From Thermoanaerobaculia bacterium (GTDB lineage Bacteria > Acidobacteriota > Thermoanaerobaculia > Gp7-AA8): DNA of 64,000 nucleotides. The position numbers and the translations under genes are program-made. Every line of letters begins with the position of its first letter. The first letter of the stretch is position 1. Positions 2,448 through 46,761 of the stretch are shown here, piece after piece. The stretch covers positions 12,154-76,153 of the forward strand of contig DATELQ010000004.1 in the NCBI GenBank assembly GCA_035276475.1, given 5' to 3'. Below the pieces are notes generated by a model. The model was not told the origin of the DNA, made no database searches, and worked only from the letters and a program-made list of their open reading frames with translations.

Positions 2448-3985
2448 CACGGCGCGCGGCTCTGGCGCTCATCGCGGTGATCGCCATCATCGCTTGCGCG
2501 CGCGTCGCCGCCACGCACGCCGTTTTCAGTCCGACGTGGGACGAGCCCGCGCACATCGACATGGGCTACGTCTATCTCACGCAGCACGTCGTCTACTTCA
2601 CCGACCACCCGCCCCTCGGCCGCGCCGTCGCGGCGTTTCCGCTGCGGCACGCCGCCGTCGATCCGCACGATCCGAAGCGCTGGATCGACGTCTGCGCGTC
2701 GGCCGGAGACCTGATGGCGGGCGTGGTGCGCTCGCGCCGGGCCATGCTCGTCTTTCTCTTCGCGGCCATTGCCGCCGCCGGCTGGTGGGGCATGCTGGTC
2801 TTCGGTCCGGTGACCGGCGTGCTGACGAGCGCCGTGCTGGCGCTCATCCCGAGCATCCTCGCGCACGGCGGCCTCTCGACGACCGACATGCCCGCCACGG
2901 CCGGCTTCGCGCTCGCCGGCGCCTGTTTTCAATGGTGGCTGCCCAGCTCGACCTGGACGCGAACGGGTCTGCTCGGCGTCGCGCTCGGAATCGCCGCGCT
3001 GACGAAGTTCACCGTTCTCCCCTTCTTCGGCATCGCGGCGGCGGTGATGCTCGTGCGCAACCGCCGCCGGCCGGACCGGAAGCTCGCCGCCGCTCTGGTG
3101 ATCGCGCTCCTCGTCGTCTGGCTCGCCTACTTCCGCGAGGTGAAGCGGATCTCGCAGATCGGCGGCGACGCCCGCACGGTGGCACACCAGCTGCTCGGCA
3201 ACGATTGGTTCGCAACGACGGTCCGCCTTCCCGCGGCACGCTACGTCTTCGGCATTCTCCAAACGCTGCAGCACAATCGCGAAGGGCATGGGTCGTTTTT
3301 CATGGGCCGCGTGCGCGACGCGGGGACGTGGGTGTACTTCCCGGTCCTCTTCGCGATCAAGACGCCGATCCCGATTCTGGCGGCGCTCGTGTTCGGACTC
3401 TGGCGCGTCCGGCGAGCGCCCGCCGGCGTCGAAATCGCCGTCATCGCCGCGGCGCTGCTCCTCTTCCTCCTCCCCAGCCGCATCAACATCGGCATCCGCC
3501 ACGCGCTGCCGCTCTACGTGCCGCTGGCGATGCTCGCCGCGTACGGCGCTTCCGAGGCGTGGAGATCGATGCGGCTGCGCGTCGTTGCCGGGGCGCTCGC
3601 GGCTTGGCTGATGGCGAGCTCGGTTCTGGCGCATCCCGACTATCTGCCGTGGGCCAACGCCTTCGCCGGCCGCGACCCGGCCTGGTTCGCGCTCGACAGC
3701 AATTACGACTGGGGCCAGGACTTCCTGCGCCTCGCGGCGGAGTGCCGCAAACGCCACATCACGCAGCTCGGCGCAAACCTCTTCGGGATGGAGGAACATG
3801 AAGCGATCGGCCTCCCGCCGACGCATCCGATCGACGAGCAGCTCGCCTCGACCGGCTGGATCGCCGTGAGCGAGAACAACGTCCGCTCCGCGCAGGCGCG
3901 CAACGCCGGCAGCTACAGATGGCTGACGGAGCCGTTCCGCTACGAGCGGGTGGGGAAGACGATCCGGCTGTATTCCGTGCCGTGA
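2444..3985 (+). CDS. GT39/ArnT-like membrane glycosyltransferase (dolichyl-phosphate-mannose protein mannosyltransferase-like)
   Basis: Multi-TM protein with 'DEPAHIDMGY' style N-terminal loop and many TM helices; GTG start overlapping OmpA stop (GTGA). Confidence 0.75.
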   Translation: MTRRAALALIAVIAIIACARVAATHAVFSPTWDEPAHIDMGYVYLTQHVVYFTDHPPLGRAVAAFPLRHAAVDPHDPKRWIDVCASAGDLMAGVVRSRRAMLVFLFAAIAAAGWWGMLVFGPVTGVLTSAVLALIPSILAHGGLSTTDMPATAGFALAGACFQWWLPSSTWTRTGLLGVALGIAALTKFTVLPFFGIAAAVMLVRNRRRPDRKLAAALVIALLVVWLAYFREVKRISQIGGDARTVAHQLLGNDWFATTVRLPAARYVFGILQTLQHNREGHGSFFMGRVRDAGTWVYFPVLFAIKTPIPILAALVFGLWRVRRAPAGVEIAVIAAALLLFLLPSRINIGIRHALPLYVPLAMLAAYGASEAWRSMRLRVVAGALAAWLMASSVLAHPDYLPWANAFAGRDPAWFALDSNYDWGQDFLRLAAECRKRHITQLGANLFGMEEHEAIGLPPTHPIDEQLASTGWIAVSENNVRSAQARNAGSYRWLTEPFRYERVGKTIRLYSVP

Positions 3986-8228: not shown

Positions 8229-9200
8229 ATGCGTGCCTGTCCGTCGTGCGGCGACGCGCCGCAGGAGATTCTCGTCTCGGCCGACGCCGTCGCCGAGGAG
8301 ATTGCGCTGCGGCGCAAGTTCTTCGCCGCGCGCATCGACGGCTGGGTCGAGCCGGCGCAGCAGAAAGACCGCGTCGACGTCGCCCAGAGCGAGCCGGCCG
8401 AGGTGCGCATCTGCCGCGCGTGCGGCGTCCTCGTGCGCGGCCGCGGCGACGCCGCGCGCTTCGCCGCCGATCCGTACGCGCCGCACGTCATGGAGCAGAT
8501 GCTGCGCACCTACATCGACGAGTTCCGCGCCCGCGAGTCGCGCATCCGGCCGCTGCTCCCCGAAGGCGCGAAGGCGATCGAGATCGGGAGCTACGTCGGC
8601 GGATTCCTGCACGTGGCGCGCGAGTGGGGCTGGGACATCACGGGCCTCGACGTCGGCGAGGACACGTCGCACTTCAGCCGCGCCAAGGGCTATCCGACGC
8701 GCACGGCGTCACTCGACGAATGCAACTTCGACGACGCCTCGCTCGACGGCGTCTTCATCTGGAACACGTTCGAGCAGATCGACGACCCGCGCGAGTTTCT
8801 CGCCGAGGTGCGGCGCGTGCTGCGGCCGCGCGGCGTGCTCGTGATCCGCACGCCGAACGCGCTCTTGTACACGATGATCGAAGCGCTGCTCGACCTCCGC
8901 CGCCCCCTCCCTCTCGACGATCACGACCCGCTCGTCATCGCCCTCGGGCACTCCAATCTCCTCGGTTTTCCGCACCTCTACGGCTTCAGCGCCGCGTCGC
9001 TCGACCGGCTCGTGACGCCGCACGGTTTCGAAGTGCAATCGCACGCCGGCACGCCGCACATCCCGCCGACGCGCCACCGCCTCTCCGCCACCGCGCGGAT
9101 CGAAGAGGAGCGCACGAACGCCGCCACCGCGAAGCTCCAGGCGGCGTTCGGCGACGTCGTGATCGGGCCGTGGCTCGAGACTACCTTTTGTCGATCGTGA
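8229..9200 (+). CDS. class I SAM-dependent methyltransferase with N-terminal CxxC..CxxC zinc-ribbon
   Basis: 'CPSCGDAPQ...CRACG' zinc ribbon; 'IEIGSYVGG' motif I, 'LRPRGVLVIRTPN' motif; diverges from the SDR gene with a ~21-bp gap. Confidence 0.75.
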   Translation: MRACPSCGDAPQEILVSADAVAEEIALRRKFFAARIDGWVEPAQQKDRVDVAQSEPAEVRICRACGVLVRGRGDAARFAADPYAPHVMEQMLRTYIDEFRARESRIRPLLPEGAKAIEIGSYVGGFLHVAREWGWDITGLDVGEDTSHFSRAKGYPTRTASLDECNFDDASLDGVFIWNTFEQIDDPREFLAEVRRVLRPRGVLVIRTPNALLYTMIEALLDLRRPLPLDDHDPLVIALGHSNLLGFPHLYGFSAASLDRLVTPHGFEVQSHAGTPHIPPTRHRLSATARIEEERTNAATAKLQAAFGDVVIGPWLETTFCRS

Positions 9201-10395
9201 CGCCGCCGGACGACGCGCTCTTGTCGAGAAGCTCGCGCCCCTTGGCCTCCTCTTTCAAGTACGCGTCCCAGAACGCCAGCGAGAGGACGCGGATCTCGTT
9301 GAACGCGTTGCGGCCGATCTGGGGGTTCACCGGGCCGTTCGTCCTCCGTGTCGGCTCGTACACCGGATACGGCTCGGGATTGCGCGGATCACCGGGGGGA
9401 TAGGGGTTCGCCTGCGGGAGCGGCATCGACGACGTCTGCGGGATCTCGGACGGGATGTACGTGCCGGCGAACGTCGAGTGCCGCGCGCCAGCCAGCAGGA
9501 CGAAGTACTTGTCGCCCGCCGCCGCGTTCGTGAACGCTGTCTTGCGCCACTGCGCGTCTTCGTTCGGCGCGGCGCCGCGGTCTTCGCTGCCGGACATGAA
9601 CATCGCCGGGATGCGGATGCCGGCGAACGACTGCGTGTTGAGCCCGAGGCTCGCCGTGACGCCCGGCGGCGACATGGCGATGATGGCCTTCACGCGCGGG
9701 TCGCCCAAGGTCAGCGGCGGGTTGCCGGACGTCGTCGCGCCACCGACGAGCATCGCCGTCAGCGCGCCTAGGGAGTGCCCGGCCACGCCGATCTTCGCGT
9801 GGTCGAATTTTCCCTTCAGCTCGGGGAAGCGCTGCTCGAGTCCGTCGAGGCGGTCGATGATCAGCGTGACGTCGCGCACGCGGTCGGTCCACTGCGGCTC
9901 GCGCTGCGACTCCCACTCGGCTGCCCGTGCGCGGCGCTCCCCCTCCTCGCGCTCCGCGGCGGCCTTCTCCATCTCCTCTTTCGTGGGACGGCGGCGCCGC
10001 TCGCGCTCCTGGTTCGCCGGCTCGCCGAAGATCGCGCGCGCCGCGTCGACCGTTTTGCCGGCGTCGGCGTGGCGCGGCCGGATGACCGCGTAGCCGTTCC
10101 GCGTCCAGTACGACACGAGCTGCTCGTAGCCCTGCTCCGAGGAGCCGTAGCCGTGCGAGAAGATGATCAGCGGGTACGGGCCGCCCTTGATCGGATATTG
10201 GATCGAGATGGTGACGTCGCGGTTGCGCTGCGCGTCGTGAAGGACGGCCGCGGGGACGACGCCGACGGCCTCGGTGCCGCCCGACGAGCTGTAGCCGGTG
10301 CTCTTGTCGGCGACGGCGGAGGACGAGGCGTTCGGCGGATTACCCGAGGAACAGGCGATGACCAGCAGCGCCGCAAGGAAGGAAAGGCGTTTCAT
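9181..10395 (-). CDS. alpha/beta hydrolase lipoprotein (dienelactone hydrolase/PAF-acetylhydrolase-like) with charged insert
   Basis: Lipobox 'VIACSS'; nucleophile elbow 'GHSLGA'; ~50-aa Glu/Arg-rich insert. Confidence 0.75.
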   Translation of the reverse strand: MKRLSFLAALLVIACSSGNPPNASSSAVADKSTGYSSSGGTEAVGVVPAAVLHDAQRNRDVTISIQYPIKGGPYPLIIFSHGYGSSEQGYEQLVSYWTRNGYAVIRPRHADAGKTVDAARAIFGEPANQERERRRRPTKEEMEKAAAEREEGERRARAAEWESQREPQWTDRVRDVTLIIDRLDGLEQRFPELKGKFDHAKIGVAGHSLGALTAMLVGGATTSGNPPLTLGDPRVKAIIAMSPPGVTASLGLNTQSFAGIRIPAMFMSGSEDRGAAPNEDAQWRKTAFTNAAAGDKYFVLLAGARHSTFAGTYIPSEIPQTSSMPLPQANPYPPGDPRNPEPYPVYEPTRRTNGPVNPQIGRNAFNEIRVLSLAFWDAYLKEEAKGRELLDKSASSGGVTIDKR

Positions 10396-38872: not shown

Positions 38873-40150
38873 GTCGGTCTTGATCCTGTAGCCGAGCGTC
38901 CGCGCCGCCACCGTCTGCTTCGCCACGCGCGCCGTCTCCAGCGCGCCGATCGCGCCGCTGCTGTCCATCACGAACGCGTCGACCTCGCCGTCGCCGGCGA
39001 AGAGCGGCCAGCCGAGCGTCAGCGTGGCCGGCAGCACGAGTGTCTTCGGCGGGCAGCAGGTCTGCTCGACCAGGCCGCGCTCGTCGCCGCGGGCGCGCAC
39101 CGTCCACTTCGCCTTGTCGCCGTAGGCGCGCGTGCGCACGACGTGGTCGCCGTCGCGGCGCGTGACCTCGACGAAGTCGGGCGCGCGATGCGCGTCCAGC
39201 CCCGCGAACGTCTCGATCGTCTTCGTCGGCGTCTTGGCCGGCACGATCAGGCTGTGCGCGAGGAGCCCGCCGTCCTTCGTCTCCCACAGCTCCCACGTCT
39301 CCGTGGCCCGCTCGCGGCGCGCGTCGCGGATCTCGTAGTGGCCGCTGGCGAGGAGCGCCTTGCGCTCGTAACGGCCGGGGTGCGGCGGGAGCGTCTCGCC
39401 GGCCAGCATCATGGCCACGTCTTGTTCGACCGTCGCCGTCACCGGCGTCTCCACCACGCGGCCGATCTCGTTGCGGCCGCGCTCGACGATCATCGTCGGC
39501 ACGTTCGTCAGGCGCTGATCGCGGACGGTCTCGAGCGGCGTGAGGAACTCGGGGCCGATGCCGTAGAGGTCGACCTGGAGCAACGAATTGTTCGCTTCGT
39601 GCAGCGCCTTGAGAAGCCGCGGCACGGCGCGCTTGCTGTCGCCGCACCACGTCGCGAAGAAGATAGTGACGTGGGCCGGCTTCGCCGCGCGGAGCTTCTC
39701 GACGACGGCCGCGTCCGGCGTGTAGTGGTCGTGGATCGACTTCCAGACCGGCGCGGTCGCCCAGAGCGTCTCCTCGGACATCGGCCCGGCGTGGCTCTGG
39801 TGCGGATAGATGAGGACGTCCTTGCCGAGGTAGCTGGAGTCGTCCGGCATCGCGAACGAACCGAGGCGCTGCGTCGGGAACGTGTCGGGCGTCGTCGCGG
39901 CGGTGCGGTCGTCGTTGAAGGCGAAGAGCGCGCGGCCGGCCGAGAGAAGCTCGTGCGTGTCGCGGTCGAAGATCCAGGCGTCGCCCGCCGGCGGCAGGTA
40001 GGCCAGGCGATGCTCGTGGACGAGCGTCTGGCCGTCACGCGTCAAGGTGCCGTGGACGTAGACGTCGCGGAGCGTGTCGTTCCACTTGAGATCCGCGATG
40101 GCGGGGAGGGCAGAGAGGAGCAGGAGAGCCGGGAGCAGTCGTCGCATCAT
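38762..40150 (-). CDS. secreted hypothetical protein with thioredoxin-fold segment
   Basis: Signal peptide MMRRLLPALLLLSALPAIA; 'TIFFATWCGDSKRAVP' thioredoxin-like motif (single Cys). Confidence 0.6.
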   Translation of the reverse strand: MMRRLLPALLLLSALPAIADLKWNDTLRDVYVHGTLTRDGQTLVHEHRLAYLPPAGDAWIFDRDTHELLSAGRALFAFNDDRTAATTPDTFPTQRLGSFAMPDDSSYLGKDVLIYPHQSHAGPMSEETLWATAPVWKSIHDHYTPDAAVVEKLRAAKPAHVTIFFATWCGDSKRAVPRLLKALHEANNSLLQVDLYGIGPEFLTPLETVRDQRLTNVPTMIVERGRNEIGRVVETPVTATVEQDVAMMLAGETLPPHPGRYERKALLASGHYEIRDARRERATETWELWETKDGGLLAHSLIVPAKTPTKTIETFAGLDAHRAPDFVEVTRRDGDHVVRTRAYGDKAKWTVRARGDERGLVEQTCCPPKTLVLPATLTLGWPLFAGDGEVDAFVMDSSGAIGALETARVAKQTVAARTLGYRIKTDSALNVPLSVTFSDGSERRLLDIQGTLPRALPAAHSE

Positions 40151-40269
40151 GCCTCCAGTTGTGTTTGGCAATAGGACGCGCGGCCGACCGGTAGGTTCTG
40201 GAAATTATATTGCAGTAAAGCCCGTTGGTTCGGCAACACGCAACACAACCAAAAGGAGAAGGCTTCAGC

Positions 40270-40476
40270 ATGCGTAGCAACGGCACTGTCAAGTGGTTCA
40301 ATGACGCGAAAGGCTTCGGCTTCATCACCATGTCGAGCGGAGAGGACGTCTTCGTCCACTTCAGCGCGATCCAGGCGAAGGGCTTCCGCAGCCTGCCCGA
40401 GGGAGCCAGCGTCGAGTTCGATCTCGTCCAGGGCCCGAAGGGCCTCCAGGCGCAGAATGTGACGGTCGCGGCGTAA
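40270..40476 (+). CDS. cspA: cold-shock protein (CspA family)
   Basis: '[15 protein letters not shown]' RNP1 and 'VFVHFSAI' RNP2; AAGGAG SD; start chosen inside ORF 40225..40476. Confidence 0.9.
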
Positions 40477-40485
40477 GCCGCGACC

Positions 40486-41559
40486 TCACTCTTTCGGAGC
40501 GCTTCTCTCCCCCGGCTGCAACGGCAGCCCCACGTCCCCGTAGTCGCGCATGAACACCATCAGCCCGTAGACGGGCGTGTTGTGCTCGAACCCCGCCACG
40601 AGCTGGTCGTTGTAGCGGTCGATGAAAAAGTCGAACGGGTCGTGCGGGTCGGTGTCCGTGACCTCCATGTCCGCGTCGAGCATCAAGAGCTTCCCCATCC
40701 GCAGCGTGCCGTGCCGGTAGTACATGACGTTCTTCTCGTTCGGGTACGGCGGCGCCAGATCCGCTAAATGCATCCCGGCGTCGAAGACCTGCACGAGCTC
40801 ACTCCCCTCGATGTGCACGTCGCTCAAGTGCGCGTCGATCTGCGGCGGCGGAAGGATCTTCGTCGGCTCCAGCAGCAGATCGTTCTTCTCCGCCTGCACC
40901 CCCTTCGCCTTGCTGAGGTCGAGCATCTTTTCCATGCTCAGGCCGAGGGCCTTGAGGAGTCCGAGGCCGTTGATGCCGCAGATGTCGAGCTTCGTCGGAT
41001 GGATGCGGATGCGGCCGTCCGGCGTCGCCGAGACGTCGCCGTACATCGTGAACGGAATGTCGACGCCCTTGTGCATGATGCCGGACTGGATGAGCTGACC
41101 ACCCTCCGGCACGACGTGGAGATTCTTGAGCGGCGCGCCGTCGTAGCCGAAGACGTAGCGGTTCATGAGCTGATCGAGCCCGACCGAGTCCATGCCGATC
41201 TTCGCCTTGTCGATCTTGACGACGAACTCGGTCTTGTTGTCGAAGTTGACCGGCTTCCCCGCCGCCTTCGACACGAACTGCCCGCGCAGCGAGTGGATGT
41301 GCATGACGGTGGTGGCGTCGATGTGGAAGTCGACGCCGCGCATCATGGCCTCGACCGGCGCCTTCGACTGCGCCTCCGTCGGCGTCGGGATGTCCTGCGA
41401 CCCGATCTCCGGAATCCGCGACGGCGGCGGCTCCGGCAGCTTCACCGCGGGCATGCCTTTGCGCAGGCAGCAGCAGGCGGGAAGGAGGAGAAGGGAGAGG
41501 AGGATGGCGATGGCGGCGGCGACGAGGGTAATGGGCTTCCACGGTAGCGTTCGTGGCAT
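40486..41559 (-). CDS. hypothetical membrane-anchored protein
   Basis: N-terminal TM/signal anchor with Cys cluster 'LLPACCCL'; no family recognised. Confidence 0.55.
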   Translation of the reverse strand: MPRTLPWKPITLVAAAIAILLSLLLLPACCCLRKGMPAVKLPEPPPSRIPEIGSQDIPTPTEAQSKAPVEAMMRGVDFHIDATTVMHIHSLRGQFVSKAAGKPVNFDNKTEFVVKIDKAKIGMDSVGLDQLMNRYVFGYDGAPLKNLHVVPEGGQLIQSGIMHKGVDIPFTMYGDVSATPDGRIRIHPTKLDICGINGLGLLKALGLSMEKMLDLSKAKGVQAEKNDLLLEPTKILPPPQIDAHLSDVHIEGSELVQVFDAGMHLADLAPPYPNEKNVMYYRHGTLRMGKLLMLDADMEVTDTDPHDPFDFFIDRYNDQLVAGFEHNTPVYGLMVFMRDYGDVGLPLQPGERSAPKE

Positions 41560-41591
41560 GCGGGGTGAGCAGTTTCACGAGTCGGGCCAGC

Positions 41592-41690
41592 GGTTCTTCG
41601 TTCTTGGTTCTTAGGTTCTTAGGTTCTTAGGTTTGTCCCGCCAATAACCTAAGAACCTAACAACCTAAGAACCTAACAACCCAAGAACCC
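41592..41690. repeat. long imperfect palindrome built from tandem 8-mers (ggttctta)n ... (taagaacc)n, low GC
   Basis: Read directly: ggttcttaggttcttaggttcttagg // cctaagaacctaacaacctaagaacc; innermost 12 bp pair perfectly; immediately upstream of the ABC ATPase GTG start. Confidence 0.7.
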
Positions 41691-41703
41691 GTAACATCTC
41701 CCC

Positions 41704-42420
41704 GTGATCGAAGTCATCAACCTCACAAAAAACTACGAAGCCCTCCTCGCCGTCGACCACCTCTCCTTCTCCGTCAAGCGCGGCGAGGTCCTCGGGTTGG
41801 TCGGGCCGAACGGCGCGGGGAAGACCACCACCCTGCGCGCGTTGGCCGGTATCCATCCGCCGACCGAGGGGCAGATTCGGATCTGCGGGGCGGACCTGCG
41901 GGAGGCGCCCGTTGACGCCAAGAAGCACCTCGCCTTCATGCCCGACGAGCCGCGGCTCTTCGACTACTTGACCGTCGAGGAGCACCTCCAATTCGTCGCG
42001 CGCATCTACGGCGTCGCCGACTTCCGCGAGCAGATGGAGCCGCTCCTCGCGGAGCTCGAGCTCGCCGACAAGCGCCGCGCCCTCCCCTCGGAGCTCTCGC
42101 GCGGCATGAAGCAGAAGCTCATGATCGCCTGCGGCTTCATCCACGCCCCCGACGTCCTGATCTTCGACGAGCCCTTGACCGGCCTCGACCCCCTCGGCAT
42201 CCGGCGCATGAAAGAGTCGATCGTCAAGCGCGCCCAGGACGGCGCCTCCGTCATCTTGAGCTCCCACCTCCTCTACCTCGTCGAGGAGCTCTGCGACACC
42301 GTCCTCATCATCAACCACGGCAAGCGCGCCGCGTACGGCACCATCGAAGACCTGAAGTGGCAGATCGGGCGCGACGCCTCGCTCGAGGATGCGTTCCTGA
42401 AAATCACGGAGACCGCGTGA
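41704..42420 (+). CDS. ABC transporter ATP-binding protein (ABC-2 type)
   Basis: Walker A 'GPNGAGKTT', signature 'LSRGMKQKL', Walker B 'LIFDEP', H-loop 'SSH'; GTG start. Confidence 0.9.
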   Translation: MIEVINLTKNYEALLAVDHLSFSVKRGEVLGLVGPNGAGKTTTLRALAGIHPPTEGQIRICGADLREAPVDAKKHLAFMPDEPRLFDYLTVEEHLQFVARIYGVADFREQMEPLLAELELADKRRALPSELSRGMKQKLMIACGFIHAPDVLIFDEPLTGLDPLGIRRMKESIVKRAQDGASVILSSHLLYLVEELCDTVLIINHGKRAAYGTIEDLKWQIGRDASLEDAFLKITETA

Positions 42421-44126
42421 TCGTCGCCCGCGCCTTCGTCGAGCTCGCGGTACGCTCCTTCCGCAACCGCATCGTGTCGCGCGTGAAGCGGATGAAAGAC
42501 CCGCGCTATGCGGTGGGCGCGCTCTTCGGCCTCCTCTACTTCGGCTGGATCTTCTTCCGCAACCGCGCCGGCTCGGCGCGCTTCTTCGGCGCCGCCGGGC
42601 CGGCCAGCGAGCTGCGCCTCGACGCCGTCTCCGCCGTCGTCCTCTTCATCATGCTCTTCGCCTGGGCGCTGCCGGGTGACTCCGGCGGCCTCGAGTTCAG
42701 CGAGGCGGAGATCGCGTTCCTCTTCCCCGCGCCGCTGCGGCGCCGCGACCTGCTCCTCTACAAGATCATCCGCCAGCAGCCGCAGGTGCTGATGAGCGTT
42801 CTCGTCTTCACGTTCTTCGGCGCCACGCGCTCGAAGTTCATCGGCCTCTGGATCGCCTTCAGCGTGATGTCGATCTACATGATGCTCGTCGCGCTCGGGC
42901 GCGCGCGGCTGCGGCTGATGGGGATCAACTTCCTGGTGCGGCTCATCGCTGTCCTGGCCATCGCCTTCGGCATCGCCGCCGTCGCCTTCTTCGCCGTCAA
43001 AGGGACGCGGCTCGACCTCGTCCACGTCACGCGCGACGTGCGCATGGCGCGGATCGACACCATCTTCCACATCCCTGCGATTGCGGCGATTCTCTTCCTC
43101 CCGAAGCTCTACGCCGGCGCGGTCTTCCCGCCGTCGCTCCTGACGCTGGCGACGTCGTCGCTCGCTCTCCTCCTCATCGGCGCGCTCTTTTTCGTCATCG
43201 CCGACCGCCTCAACGTCTCGTTCGAGGAAGGATCGCTGGTGCGCGCGCAGCGGCGCAACGAGCGGCTGCAGCAGATGCGCGAGCGCCGCGGCGGCCGCTA
43301 CGTGATGTTCAAGCGCGCCCGCGCGCCGTTCCGCCTCGCGCCGACCGGAAGGCCGGAGACCGCCATCGTCTGGAAGAACACGGTGGCCACGGTGCGGATG
43401 TCGCTGGCGTGGATCATCATCATCGTCATCGTCTTCGCGGTGCTGGTCGTCAACGCCGCCTTCATGTCGCCCGTCGCGCGCAGCGCCGTCGGCGTCACGT
43501 TCCTGATGCTCACTTGCCTGATGCCGTTCATCGGCCCGAACATCTTCACGAACGATCTCCGCCTCGACCTGCCGCGGCTCGAGGTGCTGAAGAGCTATCC
43601 GCTGTCGGGGGAGGGAATCGTGGCGGCGGAGGTGGCGGCGCCGCTGGTCATCATCGCGGCGCTGGAGCTGACGACGATCGGCTGCGCCTGGGCGATCCTG
43701 GCCACGTCCGCGAGCAAGATGACGGAGATCGTCGGCGCGGAGTTCGCCGTGGTGGCGCTGCTGCTGGCGGTGCCGGTCGTGGCGCTGCAGCTCCTCATCC
43801 GCAACGCCGTCCCGATCATCTTTCCGGCTTGGGCGGTCCGGACGAAGGAAGATCCGCGCGGCTTCGTCATCACCGGGCAGCGGCTGCTGCTGGTGCTCGG
43901 CAACCTGGTCGTGCTCGGCCTGGCGCTCGTCCCGGCCGCGCTCGTCTTCGCCCCCTCGGCGTACATCGCCATCAAGTTTTTCCACGGCAACGCCATCTTC
44001 ATGGCCGTCATGACGGCGCCCGCCATCGTGGTGATCTGCGGGGAGGTCTGGCTCGGCGTTCGCTTCCTCGGGTCGCGGTTCGAGGCGCTCGACGTGTCGC
44101 AGGAATTCGACACGATTGCCGTGTAA
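42417..44126 (+). CDS. putative ABC exporter permease (large multi-TM subunit)
   Basis: GTGA overlap with ATPase gene; ~12 predicted TM helices; 'Putative ABC exporter'-like architecture. Confidence 0.8.
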   Translation: MIVARAFVELAVRSFRNRIVSRVKRMKDPRYAVGALFGLLYFGWIFFRNRAGSARFFGAAGPASELRLDAVSAVVLFIMLFAWALPGDSGGLEFSEAEIAFLFPAPLRRRDLLLYKIIRQQPQVLMSVLVFTFFGATRSKFIGLWIAFSVMSIYMMLVALGRARLRLMGINFLVRLIAVLAIAFGIAAVAFFAVKGTRLDLVHVTRDVRMARIDTIFHIPAIAAILFLPKLYAGAVFPPSLLTLATSSLALLLIGALFFVIADRLNVSFEEGSLVRAQRRNERLQQMRERRGGRYVMFKRARAPFRLAPTGRPETAIVWKNTVATVRMSLAWIIIIVIVFAVLVVNAAFMSPVARSAVGVTFLMLTCLMPFIGPNIFTNDLRLDLPRLEVLKSYPLSGEGIVAAEVAAPLVIIAALELTTIGCAWAILATSASKMTEIVGAEFAVVALLLAVPVVALQLLIRNAVPIIFPAWAVRTKEDPRGFVITGQRLLLVLGNLVVLGLALVPAALVFAPSAYIAIKFFHGNAIFMAVMTAPAIVVICGEVWLGVRFLGSRFEALDVSQEFDTIAV

Positions 44127-44140
44127 CGGCGCACGCCGGC

Positions 44141-44341
44141 AAGCTCACGGCAGACGCTGACAAGCTCACTTAACCCGCTGACAATCTCACTTAACTAGCT
44201 GAGAATCTCTCTTAACTAGCTGAGAATCTCTCTTAACTAGCTGAGAATCTCTCTTAACTAGCCGAGAATCTCTCTTAACTTGCTGAGAATCTCTCTTAGT
44301 TTGCTGAGATTGCCAGCTAGCTAAGTGAGATTGTCAGCGGA
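44141..44341. repeat. MITE-like insertion: 5 tandem copies of a 21-bp unit (tagctgagaatctctcttaac) flanked by ~20-bp inverted repeats and a duplicated permease-gene terminus
   Basis: Units at 44197,44218,44239 identical; 44260 and 44281 variants; IR ccgctgacaatctcacttaac (44172-44196) vs gctaagtgagattgtcagcgg (44319-44341); caggaattcgacac...gtataa at 44349 repeats the last 27 nt of the permease gene (22/27 identical). Confidence 0.7.
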
Positions 44342-44409
44342 TTTGCTTCCTCCGCAGGCCGTGCCGGCCAGGAATTCGACACCATCGCTGTATAATTATT
44401 AGCAGCTAA

Positions 44410-46587
44410 GTGAAGCGTCTCCTCGTTCTCCTTGTCCTCGGCGTAACCCCTGCCCTGTTCGCCTCCGTCGGCACAGTCCGGCAGAACTTTCTCGACTACT
44501 ACGCGGCCGCCGGCGCCGACCGCAGCGCCCCGCGCATGGCCGACGCGCTGGGCACGCTCGAGGCGCAGACGCGCGACGCCACCGCCCCCGGCTTCCTCCT
44601 CGCGGACGGCACGTGGAGCGACATCGACTACAAAGAAACGCCGAGCGGCGCGTGGTCGCCGTGGGACCACTTCCGCCGCCTGACCACGATGGCCAAGGCG
44701 TACCGAACGCCCGGCCAGCGCTACTACAACGACGAGACCCTGCGGCAGCAGATCGAGGCCGCGCTCGGCCAGGTGCCGTCGTTCTACGGCAAGACCACGC
44801 TGCCGGTCGGCAACTGGTGGTTCTGGACCCTCGGCGCGCCGCTCGACCTGGGGCCGACGCTCGTCCTGATGCGCGGCAGCGTCTCGCAAAAGATCTTCGA
44901 CGACTGCGTGGCCACGCTGCAGGTGCACATCGGCACGTCGCCCACCGCGAAGGGCCTGGTCGGACCGACGCCCGTCGGCGAGAACCTCGTCTGGTCGTGC
45001 TTCACGCACCTCTGTCTCGCCCTGGCGCGCGACGACGCCGCGATGCTCGCCGCCGTCGGCAGCGCCCTCGGCACTGCCTGCACGACAACGGCAGGCGACG
45101 GCATCCAGGTCGACTCCTCGTTCCACCAGCACGGCCCGCAGCTCTACACCGGCGGCTACGGCGGCTCGTTCGCCTACGACGTCTCGCGCCTCGTGCTGCT
45201 GCTGCGCAACAGCGAGTTCGCGCCGGCGCCGGCGGCGCTCAACAGCTTCGCCAACTACGTCGCCGACGGCATCGCCTGGTCGCTCTACGGCCCCTATTTC
45301 GACGTCTCGGTCGTCGGCCGCGAGGTGGCGCGCTCGTCGACGAGCGGCATCAACGGCGTGGCCGCGCTGCTGCAGGCGTCGACGTTCAACTCGACCCGCA
45401 ACGCCGAGATCAAGAGCGCCGCCGCGGCCGCGCTCCAGTCGTGGCGCTGGCCGCTCTCTCCAGAGCTCGCCGCGCTGGCGACGCAGACAACGACGAATGC
45501 AGCATGGCCCACCGGCCACCAGCACTACTACACCTCCGACTACACGGTGCACCGCCGCCCCACTTGGTTCGCCTCGGTGAAGATGTTCTCCGCGCGCACG
45601 AAGTCGGGCGAGAACACGAACGGCGAGAATCTCCTCGGTTCGCGCCAGTCCGACGGCCGCTTCTACCTCGTCATGAACGGCGACGAGTACTTCGGCAACG
45701 ACAGCTGGCCCGCGCTCGACTGGACGCGCCTCCCCGGCATCACCGTCGAGCAGAAGGCCGACGCGGCGGACGACCAGTACGGCTACGGCACGCGCCTCTT
45801 CGCCGGCGGCACGGGCGACGGAAGGAACGGCCTGTCGGCGATGGAGCTCGCGCCGGTCAACTCGGCGCTGACGGCGAGGAAGAGCTGGTTTTTCTTCGAC
45901 GACACGATCGTGTTCCTCACAAACAGCATCACGTCCCCGTCCTCTTACAGAGTGGAGACGATCATCAACCAGTGGCCGCTGCACGGCAGCGTCACGCGAA
46001 ACGGCAACTGGCTCGCCGCCGACAACGTCGGCTACTACGTCTACCCGCAGGCGGCGGCGCTGAACGTCTCGACCGCCCCGCGCACCGGCACCTGGGCCGC
46101 CCTCGGCGGCTCGACCGACACGACGCCGCGCACGCAGACGTTCCTCACGCTCTGGCTCGACCACGGCGCGACTCCGACGAACGCCGACGCCGCGTACGCG
46201 ATCGTCCCAGGCGCGAGCGTCGCGACGATGTCATCGTTCCTCCCGCCGACGATCCTCGCCAACAACGCCAACGTCTCCGCCGTGACGAGCGGCTCGACGA
46301 CGGCGATCGTCTTCTGGTCGCCGCGCGCGAGCGTCGCCGGCTACACCGCAGACGCCGCCAGCGTCGTCTACGCGACGACCACCGGAAGCGCGCTGCAGCT
46401 CGCCGCCGCCGACCCGACGAACGGCACCGGCGTCTTCCACGTGACCGTCCCCGGCCGCTGGCTCACGACCGACGTGCCGTCGACGTTCGACGGCCACGGC
46501 ACGACGCTGACGCTCCCCCGCGGCGGCGCCACGACGCGCGTGACGCTCAGTCCGCCGCCGGCGCGGCGAAGGGCGGCGGGAAAATGA
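44410..46587 (+). CDS. polysaccharide lyase family 8 (hyaluronate/chondroitin AC/xanthan lyase-like), secreted
   Basis: Signal peptide; 'GNWWFWTLGAP' Lyase_8_N motif, 'SSFHQHGPQLYTGGYGGSFAYD' catalytic His/Tyr region, 'RQSDGRFYLVMNGDEY'. Confidence 0.85.
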   Translation: MKRLLVLLVLGVTPALFASVGTVRQNFLDYYAAAGADRSAPRMADALGTLEAQTRDATAPGFLLADGTWSDIDYKETPSGAWSPWDHFRRLTTMAKAYRTPGQRYYNDETLRQQIEAALGQVPSFYGKTTLPVGNWWFWTLGAPLDLGPTLVLMRGSVSQKIFDDCVATLQVHIGTSPTAKGLVGPTPVGENLVWSCFTHLCLALARDDAAMLAAVGSALGTACTTTAGDGIQVDSSFHQHGPQLYTGGYGGSFAYDVSRLVLLLRNSEFAPAPAALNSFANYVADGIAWSLYGPYFDVSVVGREVARSSTSGINGVAALLQASTFNSTRNAEIKSAAAAALQSWRWPLSPELAALATQTTTNAAWPTGHQHYYTSDYTVHRRPTWFASVKMFSARTKSGENTNGENLLGSRQSDGRFYLVMNGDEYFGNDSWPALDWTRLPGITVEQKADAADDQYGYGTRLFAGGTGDGRNGLSAMELAPVNSALTARKSWFFFDDTIVFLTNSITSPSSYRVETIINQWPLHGSVTRNGNWLAADNVGYYVYPQAAALNVSTAPRTGTWAALGGSTDTTPRTQTFLTLWLDHGATPTNADAAYAIVPGASVATMSSFLPPTILANNANVSAVTSGSTTAIVFWSPRASVAGYTADAASVVYATTTGSALQLAAADPTNGTGVFHVTVPGRWLTTDVPSTFDGHGTTLTLPRGGATTRVTLSPPPARRRAAGK

Positions 46588-46761
46588 GCGCCGATCGAGA
46601 CAGGTATGGATTGAGCAACGACACTGTTGCGGCGTTGTTTATGGAATGTAATGGTTTCAGTAACTTCAACAACGACCTTAAACTAGGCTTATCATTCGCG
46701 CGTACTCCTGTCATGCTTGCGCCACTGGTGACGCACTGCAAACTGCCGAAAGGGGGCGCTC

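Follow-up and report, generated by a model that had tools for sequence, protein, structure and literature searches.

A palindromic octamer array beside an ABC exporter operon as a probable copy of a dispersed gene-boundary repeat family in Thermoanaerobaculia

Background

Intergenic heptameric repeats and their inverted pairs, known from Xanthomonas and Nostoc (Rehm et al. 2015, PMC4692102), are the closest described class to the element reported here, a palindrome of tandem 8-mers at positions 41592-41690 of a 64,000-nucleotide stretch of Thermoanaerobaculia bacterium DNA (assembly GCA_035276475.1, contig DATELQ010000004.1, positions 12,154 to 76,153; hereafter the window), directly in front of an ABC exporter operon. 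A Xanthomonas genome carries about 185 repeats of the heptamer GGGAATC, each of 2-26 units, with 70-75 inverted pairs in which a G-rich array on the plus strand is followed by one on the minus strand; 65-70% of the repeats lie between aligned genes, 16% between convergent and 7-8% between divergent genes, and by a strand rule the G-rich strand follows or overlaps stop codons while its complement precedes start codons (PMC4692102). The Nostoc heptamer is GGGGAYT, and the repeats of both genera have been explained as formers of G-quadruplexes (G4) (PMC4692102). Dispersed inverted-pair repeats of heptameric or octameric units at gene boundaries are a poorly understood class, which the present analysis extends to the Acidobacteriota.

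Other dispersed repeats offer partial parallels. The short tandemly repeated repetitive (STRR) sequences of the cyanobacteria Calothrix and Anabaena are tandem heptamers that fall into several families and are scattered some hundred-fold through intergenic DNA, and MITEs (miniature inverted-repeat transposable elements), such as the Correia elements of Neisseria, are short inverted-repeat insertions between genes, which are co-transcribed and fold into hairpins. Three tandemly repetitive heptanucleotides of Calothrix PCC7601 are cited in PMC4692102. The TAACTGA heptamers of marine Beggiatoaceae, Cyanobacteria and Bacteroidetes form 169 direct sets and one indirect set, of 2-6 copies each (MacGregor 2015, PMC4679880). 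Repetitive extragenic palindromes (REPs) are defined as imperfect palindromes of 20-40 nt with a conserved GTAG or CGTC tetranucleotide at their end, and they require a RAYT gene, present once and bordered by the repeats (PMC3733652). A full-text literature search for the repeat sequence described below returned no paper that contains it, and a search combining Thermoanaerobaculia, repeat and palindrome returned nothing relevant.

A palindromic array and its dispersed family

Tandem Repeats Finder resolves the structure into a tandem array at 41592-41633 with period 8 (5.5 copies, 91% matches, consensus GGTTCTTA) and an inverted array at 41646-41689, which can be read either with period 8 (5.5 copies) or with period 16 (2.8 copies, 96% matches, AACCTAAGAACCTAAC) and in which the complement units AACCTAAG and AACCTAAC alternate. 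The inner 28 nt of the two arms are 96% complementary across the 12-nt centre tgtcccgccaat. The predicted hairpin has 41 pairs and, as RNA, a folding free energy (dG) of -53.5 kcal/mol (z -8.4); folded as DNA, the array gives a dG of -31 (z -8.4), and none of 200 shuffles folds as well as the array region. All eight occurrences in the window of the 12-mer GGTTCTTAGGTT, allowing at most two mismatches, fall within the structure, against 0.8 expected and a count that none of 100 shuffles reached. The GC content of the array is 0.42, compared with 0.65-0.73 in its flanks and a background of 0.67. An initial annotation of this DNA had described a long, AT-rich palindrome of tandem 8-mers capable of forming an imperfect hairpin of about 40 bp and ending 13 nt before the GTG of the ABC ATPase gene, in a gap of 144 nt, and each of these points is confirmed; the GTG is at 41704 and the gap spans 41560-41703. 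It was mistaken in calling the gene to the left convergent, since this gene (40486-41559) is encoded on the minus strand, starts with an ATG at 41559 and is divergent from the ABC ATPase gene.

We consider it probable that the array is one copy of a dispersed intergenic family of palindromic short tandem repeats in a Thermoanaerobaculia (Acidobacteriota) lineage. A member of this family consists of a number of copies of GGTTCTTA or GTTCTTA, a short variable centre, and copies of the complement TAAGAACC or TAAGAAC. When one genome per prokaryotic species was scanned for exact matches to the 20-mer GGTTCTTAGGTTCTTAGGTT, at least 109 stretches were found among the matches listed, most of those outside the Acidobacteria being plain one-directional microsatellites. 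A separate look at viral contigs gave only two matches, with no sign of a phage vector. The palindromic architecture of the window array recurs at more than 60 loci in two related high-GC metagenome-assembled genomes (MAGs), DATDFB01 (Thermoanaerobaculia SMAG_U215) and JBKOUP01 (Acidobacteriota GM_HAYS_MAG_00023), which are rich in copies, with dozens of palindromic loci; the motif is thus not unique to the site at which it was first noticed.

The anatomy of these copies is constant: [GTT(C/G)TT + 1-2-nt linker]n, a non-conserved centre of 0-50 nt, and [AA(G/C)AAC + linker]n, with the order of units mirrored between the arms such that octamers tend to be innermost and heptamers outermost. Polarity is nearly invariant, the G/T-rich arm being the 5' arm in 62 cases and the 3' arm in one. 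Among 47 independent copies, 34 lie at co-directional junctions (72%), 8 at convergent junctions (17%) and 5 at divergent junctions (11%), which places 89% of copies outside divergent regions. The fit to the flanking genes is tight: all 55 open reading frames (ORFs) running toward an array end between -16 and +9 nt from the array edge or on an internal TAG, outward start codons lie a median of 9 nt from the array edge, and the intergenic sequence left outside the array has a median length of 11 nt. Because 8 and 7 are both coprime with 3, each of the three frames contains TAG (TAA on the opposite strand) within three units.

Two ideas about these copies were discarded. A role for the hexamer TAAGAA as the -10 element of leaderless transcripts was rejected, since no fixed spacing is favoured between the last TAAGAA and the ATG, the distance ranging from 0 to above 20 nt. 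A locus (L065) that seemed to have its two arms separated by a gene, as in an autonomous element, proved spurious, the supposed A/C-rich arm being coding sequence and the other arm part of a normal palindrome.

The octamer was also seen in two other groups. In the Verrucomicrobiota MAG JBCCIR01, seven loci (L009, L030, L034, L061, L071, L079 and L081) carry the identical octamer in one-directional (TAAGAACC)2-3 arrays, which lie in A/C-rich leaders a few to tens of nucleotides upstream of an ATG. A Desulfobacteraceae MAG (L008/L029) has arrays of 12-13 units at two contig ends, which combined would make a perfect palindrome of reverse polarity around TAACTAGTTA.

Comparison with described repeats

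The likeness to the Xanthomonas and Nostoc repeats extends from composition to placement. In both, tandem units of about 7 nt occur in variable number at dispersed, mostly intergenic sites of high-GC hosts; in our loci, tandem units exceed chance at many sites, arms form convergent pairs led by the G-rich array, and stops and starts obey the same strand rule. The proportions of junction types (72/17/11% here, 65-70/16/7-8% in Xanthomonas) are nearly identical, and, as in Xanthomonas, related genomes differ in array length but retain the type, single array or inverted pair. Unlike those repeats, the copies here are almost all palindromic, single arrays being few, the whole intergenic region is filled, several unit families swap at one junction, and the host phylum is Acidobacteriota.

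A further difference lies in the unit itself, an AT-rich 8-mer or 7-mer. Neither GGTTCTTA nor GTTCTTA contains more than GG, and since there is no run of three G residues, a three-tetrad G4 cannot form; the runs of three or more G that mark the Xanthomonas and Nostoc units are lacking, though such runs pertain to how PMC4692102 interprets the repeats and do not define the class. Given that units of this kind obey the positional and strand rules of Xanthomonas, the G-quadruplex explanation cannot be general, and the property that unifies the class is probably not G4 formation. What is new here is the occurrence of a known repeat class in a new phylum with non-G4 units; the class itself is mechanistically unexplained.

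Likenesses to the other systems are narrower. Like the TAACTGA repeats, the units carry stop codons, lie in forward orientation a few nucleotides upstream of starts, usually without a Shine-Dalgarno sequence, and have a scattered phylogenetic distribution with no known mechanism of spread; unlike the direct TAACTGA repeats, they form palindromes and longer arrays, and abut stop codons equally. STRR sequences are mainly described as one-directional arrays and differ in units and host phylum. With MITEs our arrays share the form of a small intergenic inverted-repeat insertion (PMC3733652), and they depart from MITEs in that neither a conserved internal sequence nor a target-site duplication was found. 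With REPs and their hairpin-forming inverted doublets (REPINs) they have in common a dispersed extragenic location, a spacer, fixed polarity, several families per genome and variable presence, but the arms are micro-repeats whose number varies, their spacer is unconserved, no RAYT gene was found in the retrieved sequence, and no GTAG or CGTC recurs consistently at the ends, the few cases of GTAG being the unit's own TAG.

The orthologous site in related genomes

Searching the pattern-matched loci with the proteins of the window (tblastn) gave no orthologous regions, and the history of the site was instead read from eight syntenic loci fetched through homologs of the permease (percentages in this paragraph are permease identities to the window). 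The permease of the window matches, at 100% identity, a protein placed by NCBI in a Thermoanaerobaculia MAG. All relatives retain the order DUF3857 gene, cold-shock (CSD) gene, 357-aa gene, ABC ATPase, permease, PL8 lyase, and the flanks of the array are likewise conserved in them, whether or not an array lies between these flanks. Arrays occupy the exact orthologous site in the window, L111 (from DATDFB01; 90%), L113 (87%), L117 (86%) and L118 (80%). Their units are GGTTCTTA or GGTTGTTA in varying number, and their centres measure 12 nt in the window, 2 nt (ta/tt) in both L111 and L113, 7 nt in L117 and 3 nt in L118; in L117, both arms consist of heptamers only (GTTCTTA / TAAGAAC). Further away, the site in L119 (75%) holds no more than a short GGTTCGT...GAACGAAGAAC palindrome, L114 (77%) has 24 nt of unrelated sequence and no array, and L115 (76%) has a different AT-rich palindromic repeat of GAATGCA-type units, present at 8940-9263 as two tandem copies of about 130 nt, each starting with gggccagagcg. 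Long hairpins are predicted in five of the five array-bearing loci (z -6.5 to -9.4); L119 and L114 do not fold in this way.

The initial annotation would have been refuted by a motif confined to this place and not conserved in related genomes, but the motif recurs elsewhere and the array is kept at the orthologous site. Given the pattern of presence and absence and the changes of unit and centre among orthologs, the array is old at this site, evolves fast and is dispensable for the ABC operon, and its arms change in coordination.

This pattern bears on two local explanations. Arrays of 7-bp heptads, direct and inverted, are the known operators of the omega repressor, and by the same heptad logic a dimeric or multimeric repressor (omega-like or ribbon-helix-helix-like) could bind the inverted 8-mers and control both the divergent lipoprotein gene and the ABC operon; the array does sit between divergent promoters, next to a -10-like hexamer. 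We nevertheless regard such an operator, the dedicated regulatory site envisaged by the initial annotation, as highly improbable. Operator or iteron arrays go with the promoters of a regulon and a cognate protein, but the same element stands at more than 60 unrelated junctions, mostly outside divergent regions; orthologous arrays vary in centre and in the number and type of their units; relatives that lack the array keep both flanks and operon; and no regulator gene was found among the genes neighbouring the array. The second explanation, a phase-variation microsatellite in which changes in unit number switch the expression of flanking genes, would suit a tandem repeat beside promoters and starts whose unit number differs between lineages. 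We give it hardly any credence, because the units are non-coding, the family also occurs at housekeeping-type operon junctions, and the sequence upstream of the -10-like hexamer is periodic, so that gain or loss of a unit leaves the spacing unchanged. Moreover, L111 and L112, two independent assemblies of one population, are identical.

Filled and empty junctions and turnover of unit families

Insertion of non-local sequence can be followed at a junction outside the ABC locus. In L020, a gene for a 789-aa redox/cNMP-binding protein has arrays on both sides (1196-1271 and 3642-3719), and homologs of this gene were fetched from three further lineages (L122, L123 and L124). At its upstream junction, L123 (83%) has a plain ATGA stop/start overlap, and L020, L124 and L122 have palindromes of the GTTCTT family. 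The units of these palindromes are 8-mers in the query, GTTCTTA 7-mers in the lineage at 94% and GTTCTTC/GAAGAAC 7-mers in the lineage at 89%; their centres (5, 20 and 29 nt) are unrelated, the upstream ORF ends on a TAG of the array, and the last unit directly abuts the ATG. At the junction downstream of the gene, the GTTCTT family is present in two lineages, (GAATGCA)n/(TGCATTC)n in one and (GAGGACT)n/(AGTCCTC)n in one, so that either unit families turn over or the junction is a strongly preferred target.

A comparable succession is seen where the cold-shock gene and the 357-aa gene converge. In the window (40468-40487) their spacer is a 9-nt gap within a small hairpin, gtcgcggcgTAAgccgcgac, and in L114, L115 and L119 it holds a GC-rich hairpin; in L111 (8002-8070) and L117 (1679-1746) it is occupied by (GAGTCCT)n/(AGGACTC)n palindromes that are flush with both stop codons. 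Further unit families in the retrieved loci are GAGTGCT, GGNNACA, GGGCGCA and GCGATTA, and in all at least eight unrelated unit sequences share one architecture and the same positions. G is at least as frequent as C in the 5' arm of every family, with mean GC skews of 0.05-0.56 (for example L036 7399-7493, L062 2901-2977, L068 4779-4863 and the array starting at L123 5377), and hence incoming genes meet the G-rich arm and outgoing genes leave from the C-rich arm, whichever strand they lie on. Since sister lineages have different families at one junction, and filled and empty forms of the same site, the architecture is generic and the arrays are best read as inserted sequence rather than outgrowths of local sequence. 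Filled and empty junctions (including the former ATGA overlap), coordinated shifts between 7-mers and 8-mers in the two arms, and the succession of unit families provide handles on how such repeats originate and are tolerated.

The same observations are a difficulty for the view that the unit is a global cis-acting motif, in which (UAAGAACC)n as RNA, or the corresponding DNA, would be bound by a trans-acting protein or the ribosome in a genome-wide post-transcriptional or structural network. Invariant polarity fits this view, as does the sense arm, which lies 0-10 nt upstream of most outward starts and usually leaves no room for a Shine-Dalgarno sequence; the octamer recurs in short one-directional arrays before ATG codons at several loci of the Verrucomicrobiota MAG; and analogous proposals exist for the Beggiatoaceae TAACTGA repeats (PMC4679880) and, through G-quadruplexes, for Xanthomonas GGGAATC (PMC4692102). 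The fact that at least eight unrelated units share architecture and positions, and interchange at the same junction, argues against a single sequence-specific binder. In addition, GGTTCTTA cannot act through a three-tetrad G4, arrays are present or absent among close relatives whose genes are unchanged, and no candidate protein was identified. On balance a global motif seems unlikely.

Origin and tolerance of the arrays

The preferred reading, a dispersed palindromic repeat family, rests on directly observed features: the family itself, its fixed polarity, its position flush with stops and starts, presence in close and absence from distant relatives, filled versus empty junctions and coordinated changes of the arms. 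From these the following course may be suggested. An element would arrive by insertion and thereafter behave as a palindromic microsatellite, with slippage adding and removing units and hairpin-templated repair keeping the two arms alike. It would be tolerated at gene boundaries because a ribosome entering from either side would meet TAG in all three frames within three units, and also because the strand leaving toward either side would be G-poor and A/C-rich. A transcribed copy is predicted to form an RNA hairpin of about 40 bp, probably a generic structure for processing, stability or translational coupling; at co-directional junctions, the base of the hairpin would juxtapose stop and start codons and may preserve translational coupling.

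Several points weigh against this reading. The complementarity of the arms is imperfect, with C-C mismatches where TAAC units oppose GGTTCTTA units, so that selection for a perfect stem is not evident. Unlike that of typical MITEs or REPINs, the centre is not conserved between copies, and around 58 palindromes no target-site duplication of 7 nt or more was found, the flanking repeats being no better than those of random flanks. A tblastn search of the retrieved fragments (about 0.6-0.7 Mb) with two approximate IS200/IS605 TnpA query sequences detected no Y1 transposase apart from one at an unrelated Atopobium locus, and no mobilising enzyme was found. The flanking genes were called by a heuristic based on ORFs and third-position GC content (GC3) rather than by an annotation pipeline. 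Flushness to stops and starts, together with the octamer in other phyla, could indicate a trans-acting partner and a real function instead of mere tolerance. Lastly, hairpin formation in RNA, transcription start sites and effects on expression are all predictions from sequence.

At the Atopobium locus just mentioned (L012 3744-4172), the transposase gene belongs to the IS200 family of insertion sequences (IS) and is bounded by ccacccgctatgcgggtgg hairpins; a plain (CCTAAGAA)n array is found some 230 nt away. A sister MAG (L057) has the array without the IS, which makes the association coincidental and the IS a later insertion.

A rival reading is a non-autonomous transposon of REPIN or MITE type, a palindrome excised and inserted in the form of single-stranded hairpin DNA through the action of one HUH tyrosine transposase (RAYT-like or TIRYT-like) encoded by a single-copy gene elsewhere in the genome. 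The dispersed intergenic inverted doublet with spacer and fixed polarity, in several families per genome, matches REPINs (PMC3116915, PMC3337134); the filled and empty sites show that non-local sequence was inserted; and tyrosine transposases associated with terminal inverted repeats have been reported in Acidobacteria (PMC3733652). We judge it distinctly unlikely all the same, as the arms are variable-number tandem 7-8-mers rather than a REP unit of 20-40 nt, the ends lack the GTAG/CGTC tag, and the unconserved centre, the missing duplication and the outcome of the transposase search in the retrieved fragments tell against it as well.

A different source of inserted sequence would be the healing of DNA breaks, in which both 3' ends of a double-strand break are extended by telomerase-like addition of G-rich repeats and then joined head to head with filler. 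This scheme accounts for the polarity with the G-rich strand toward the centre in all unit families, the unequal arm lengths, the irregular 7-mer and 8-mer units, the unrelated centres at the same junction, the loss of the short original intergenic region and the ORFs that end on array stops. We know of no such telomerase-like enzyme in bacteria, none was found here, and the scheme is a pure postulate; since the mirrored order of unit variants, slippage and hairpin-templated repair explain most features without it, we consider it very improbable. In a broader form, the arrays could be traces left by an active system through which Thermoanaerobaculia gene junctions are rewritten, either by templated G-rich addition and head-to-head joining or by structure-specific insertion at stop/start junctions. 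A system of this sort would explain the G-rich-toward-centre polarity, the unrelated centres, the insertion into ATGA overlaps and the replacement of families at one junction, but we put it forward as a conjecture of low probability. The polarity rule, the targeting of junctions and the turnover of families do leave room for a more novel mechanism.

A second, independent array

The initial annotation had also raised the possibility that the array marks one terminus of an inserted ABC-exporter cassette, with the other terminus in a second repeat structure at 44141-44341. Two low-GC repeat structures do bracket both ABC genes. The second repeat spans 44127-44369 and is an insertion of about 243 nt specific to the window, composed of 21-nt units GCTGAGAATCTCTCTTAACTA and one inverted unit (RNA fold z -8.2). 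In L113, L114, L115, L118 and L119, the permease/lyase spacer has its ancestral length of 14 nt (taattattagcagctacGTG). The second array is missing from L111, L113, L114, L118 and L119 and the first from L114 and L115; accordingly the first array occurs without the second (L111, L113, L118) and the operon without either (L114, L119), which refutes the cassette-terminus reading. The operon and its neighbours through the PL8 lyase gene are, moreover, syntenic in eight of the eight relatives, the two arrays have no unit in common, and the 21-mer was found in no other retrieved locus. The second array is thus an independent insertion, and a cassette boundary can in effect be dismissed.

Taken together, the interpretation in the initial annotation is partly supported, in that the hairpin and its conservation hold and the cassette terminus and dedicated operator do not. 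For annotation purposes, the palindrome should not be read as an operator of the ABC exporter or as the boundary of a mobile cassette.

The site of the second array has features of its own. The insertion lies within the 3' end of the permease gene, and its flanks (44100-44126 and 44370-44396) are a 27-nt duplication of the last 8 codons plus stop; both copies encode QEFDTIAV*, the first with four synonymous changes and the second keeping the ancestral sequence. In L117, the same position holds a different palindromic heptamer array, GCGATTA/TAATCGC, with the same segment duplicated. The 27-nt duplication resembles an att site or a long target duplication.

Promoter region and neighbouring genes

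The flanks of the first array define its local setting (Table 1). Across relatives, the left flank has the consensus catgcggggtgagcRgtttcacgaStcgSgccag, and the right flank reads cgTATCATcYcc followed by GTG. The right flank contains a -10-like hexamer, 6-8 nt before the GTG that starts the ABC ATPase gene, which reads TAACAT in the window, TATCAT in seven relatives and TATGAT in L119, and there is no Shine-Dalgarno sequence. A conserved -10-like hexamer abutting the array and so close to the start codon makes it probable that the ABC mRNA is leaderless or nearly so, and suggests that its transcript starts downstream of the array, which would then be upstream promoter DNA rather than leader. 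At this locus, the array would lie between back-to-back promoter regions and probably supply the upstream part of the ABC promoter, with an effect on the operon that may be modulatory or neutral.

Standard scans of the region were negative. A sigma-70 promoter scan of the intergenic region (41560-41703) called nothing. Rfam 15 gave no match at the gathering threshold over 40000-46000, its sole hit (mir-737, 30.5 bits versus 60) being a chance match, and a terminator scan left the hairpin uncalled, its stem being AT-rich and followed by ccgtaacatc, not a GC-rich hairpin with a U tract.

Table 1. Coordinates of the array, its conserved flanks and the adjacent genes in the window
Feature	Position	Strand	Description
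5' arm	41592..41633	none	GGTTCTTC GTTCTTG GTTCTTA GGTTCTTA GGTTCTTA GGTT; G/T-rich tandem 7-/8-mers, degenerate or 7-mer units outermost
Variable centre / hairpin loop	41634..41645	none	12 nt, tgtcccgccaat
3' arm	41646..41689	none	AACC TAAGAACC TAACAACC TAAGAACC TAACAACC CAAGAACC; A/C-rich complement, 16-nt superperiod
RNA forms of repeat units			(UAAGAACC)n and (GGUUCUUA)n
Conserved left flank	41560..41591	-	Reverse complement ctggcccgactcgtgaaactgctcaccccgcATG; leader/promoter-proximal region of the divergent 357-aa gene; kept with or without array
Conserved right flank	41690..41703	+	cgTAACATctcccc; -10-like hexamer at 41692-41697
Divergent 357-aa gene	40486..41559	-	Lipoprotein-like signal peptide; no Pfam hit
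ABC transporter ATPase	41704..42420	+	PF00005; GTG start
ABC exporter permease	42417..44126	+	PF16962; overlaps the ATPase gene by 4 nt

Downstream of the PL8 lyase gene, a further low-GC stretch (GC 0.44) of about 120 nt lies at 46598-46718; it contains no tandem repeat.

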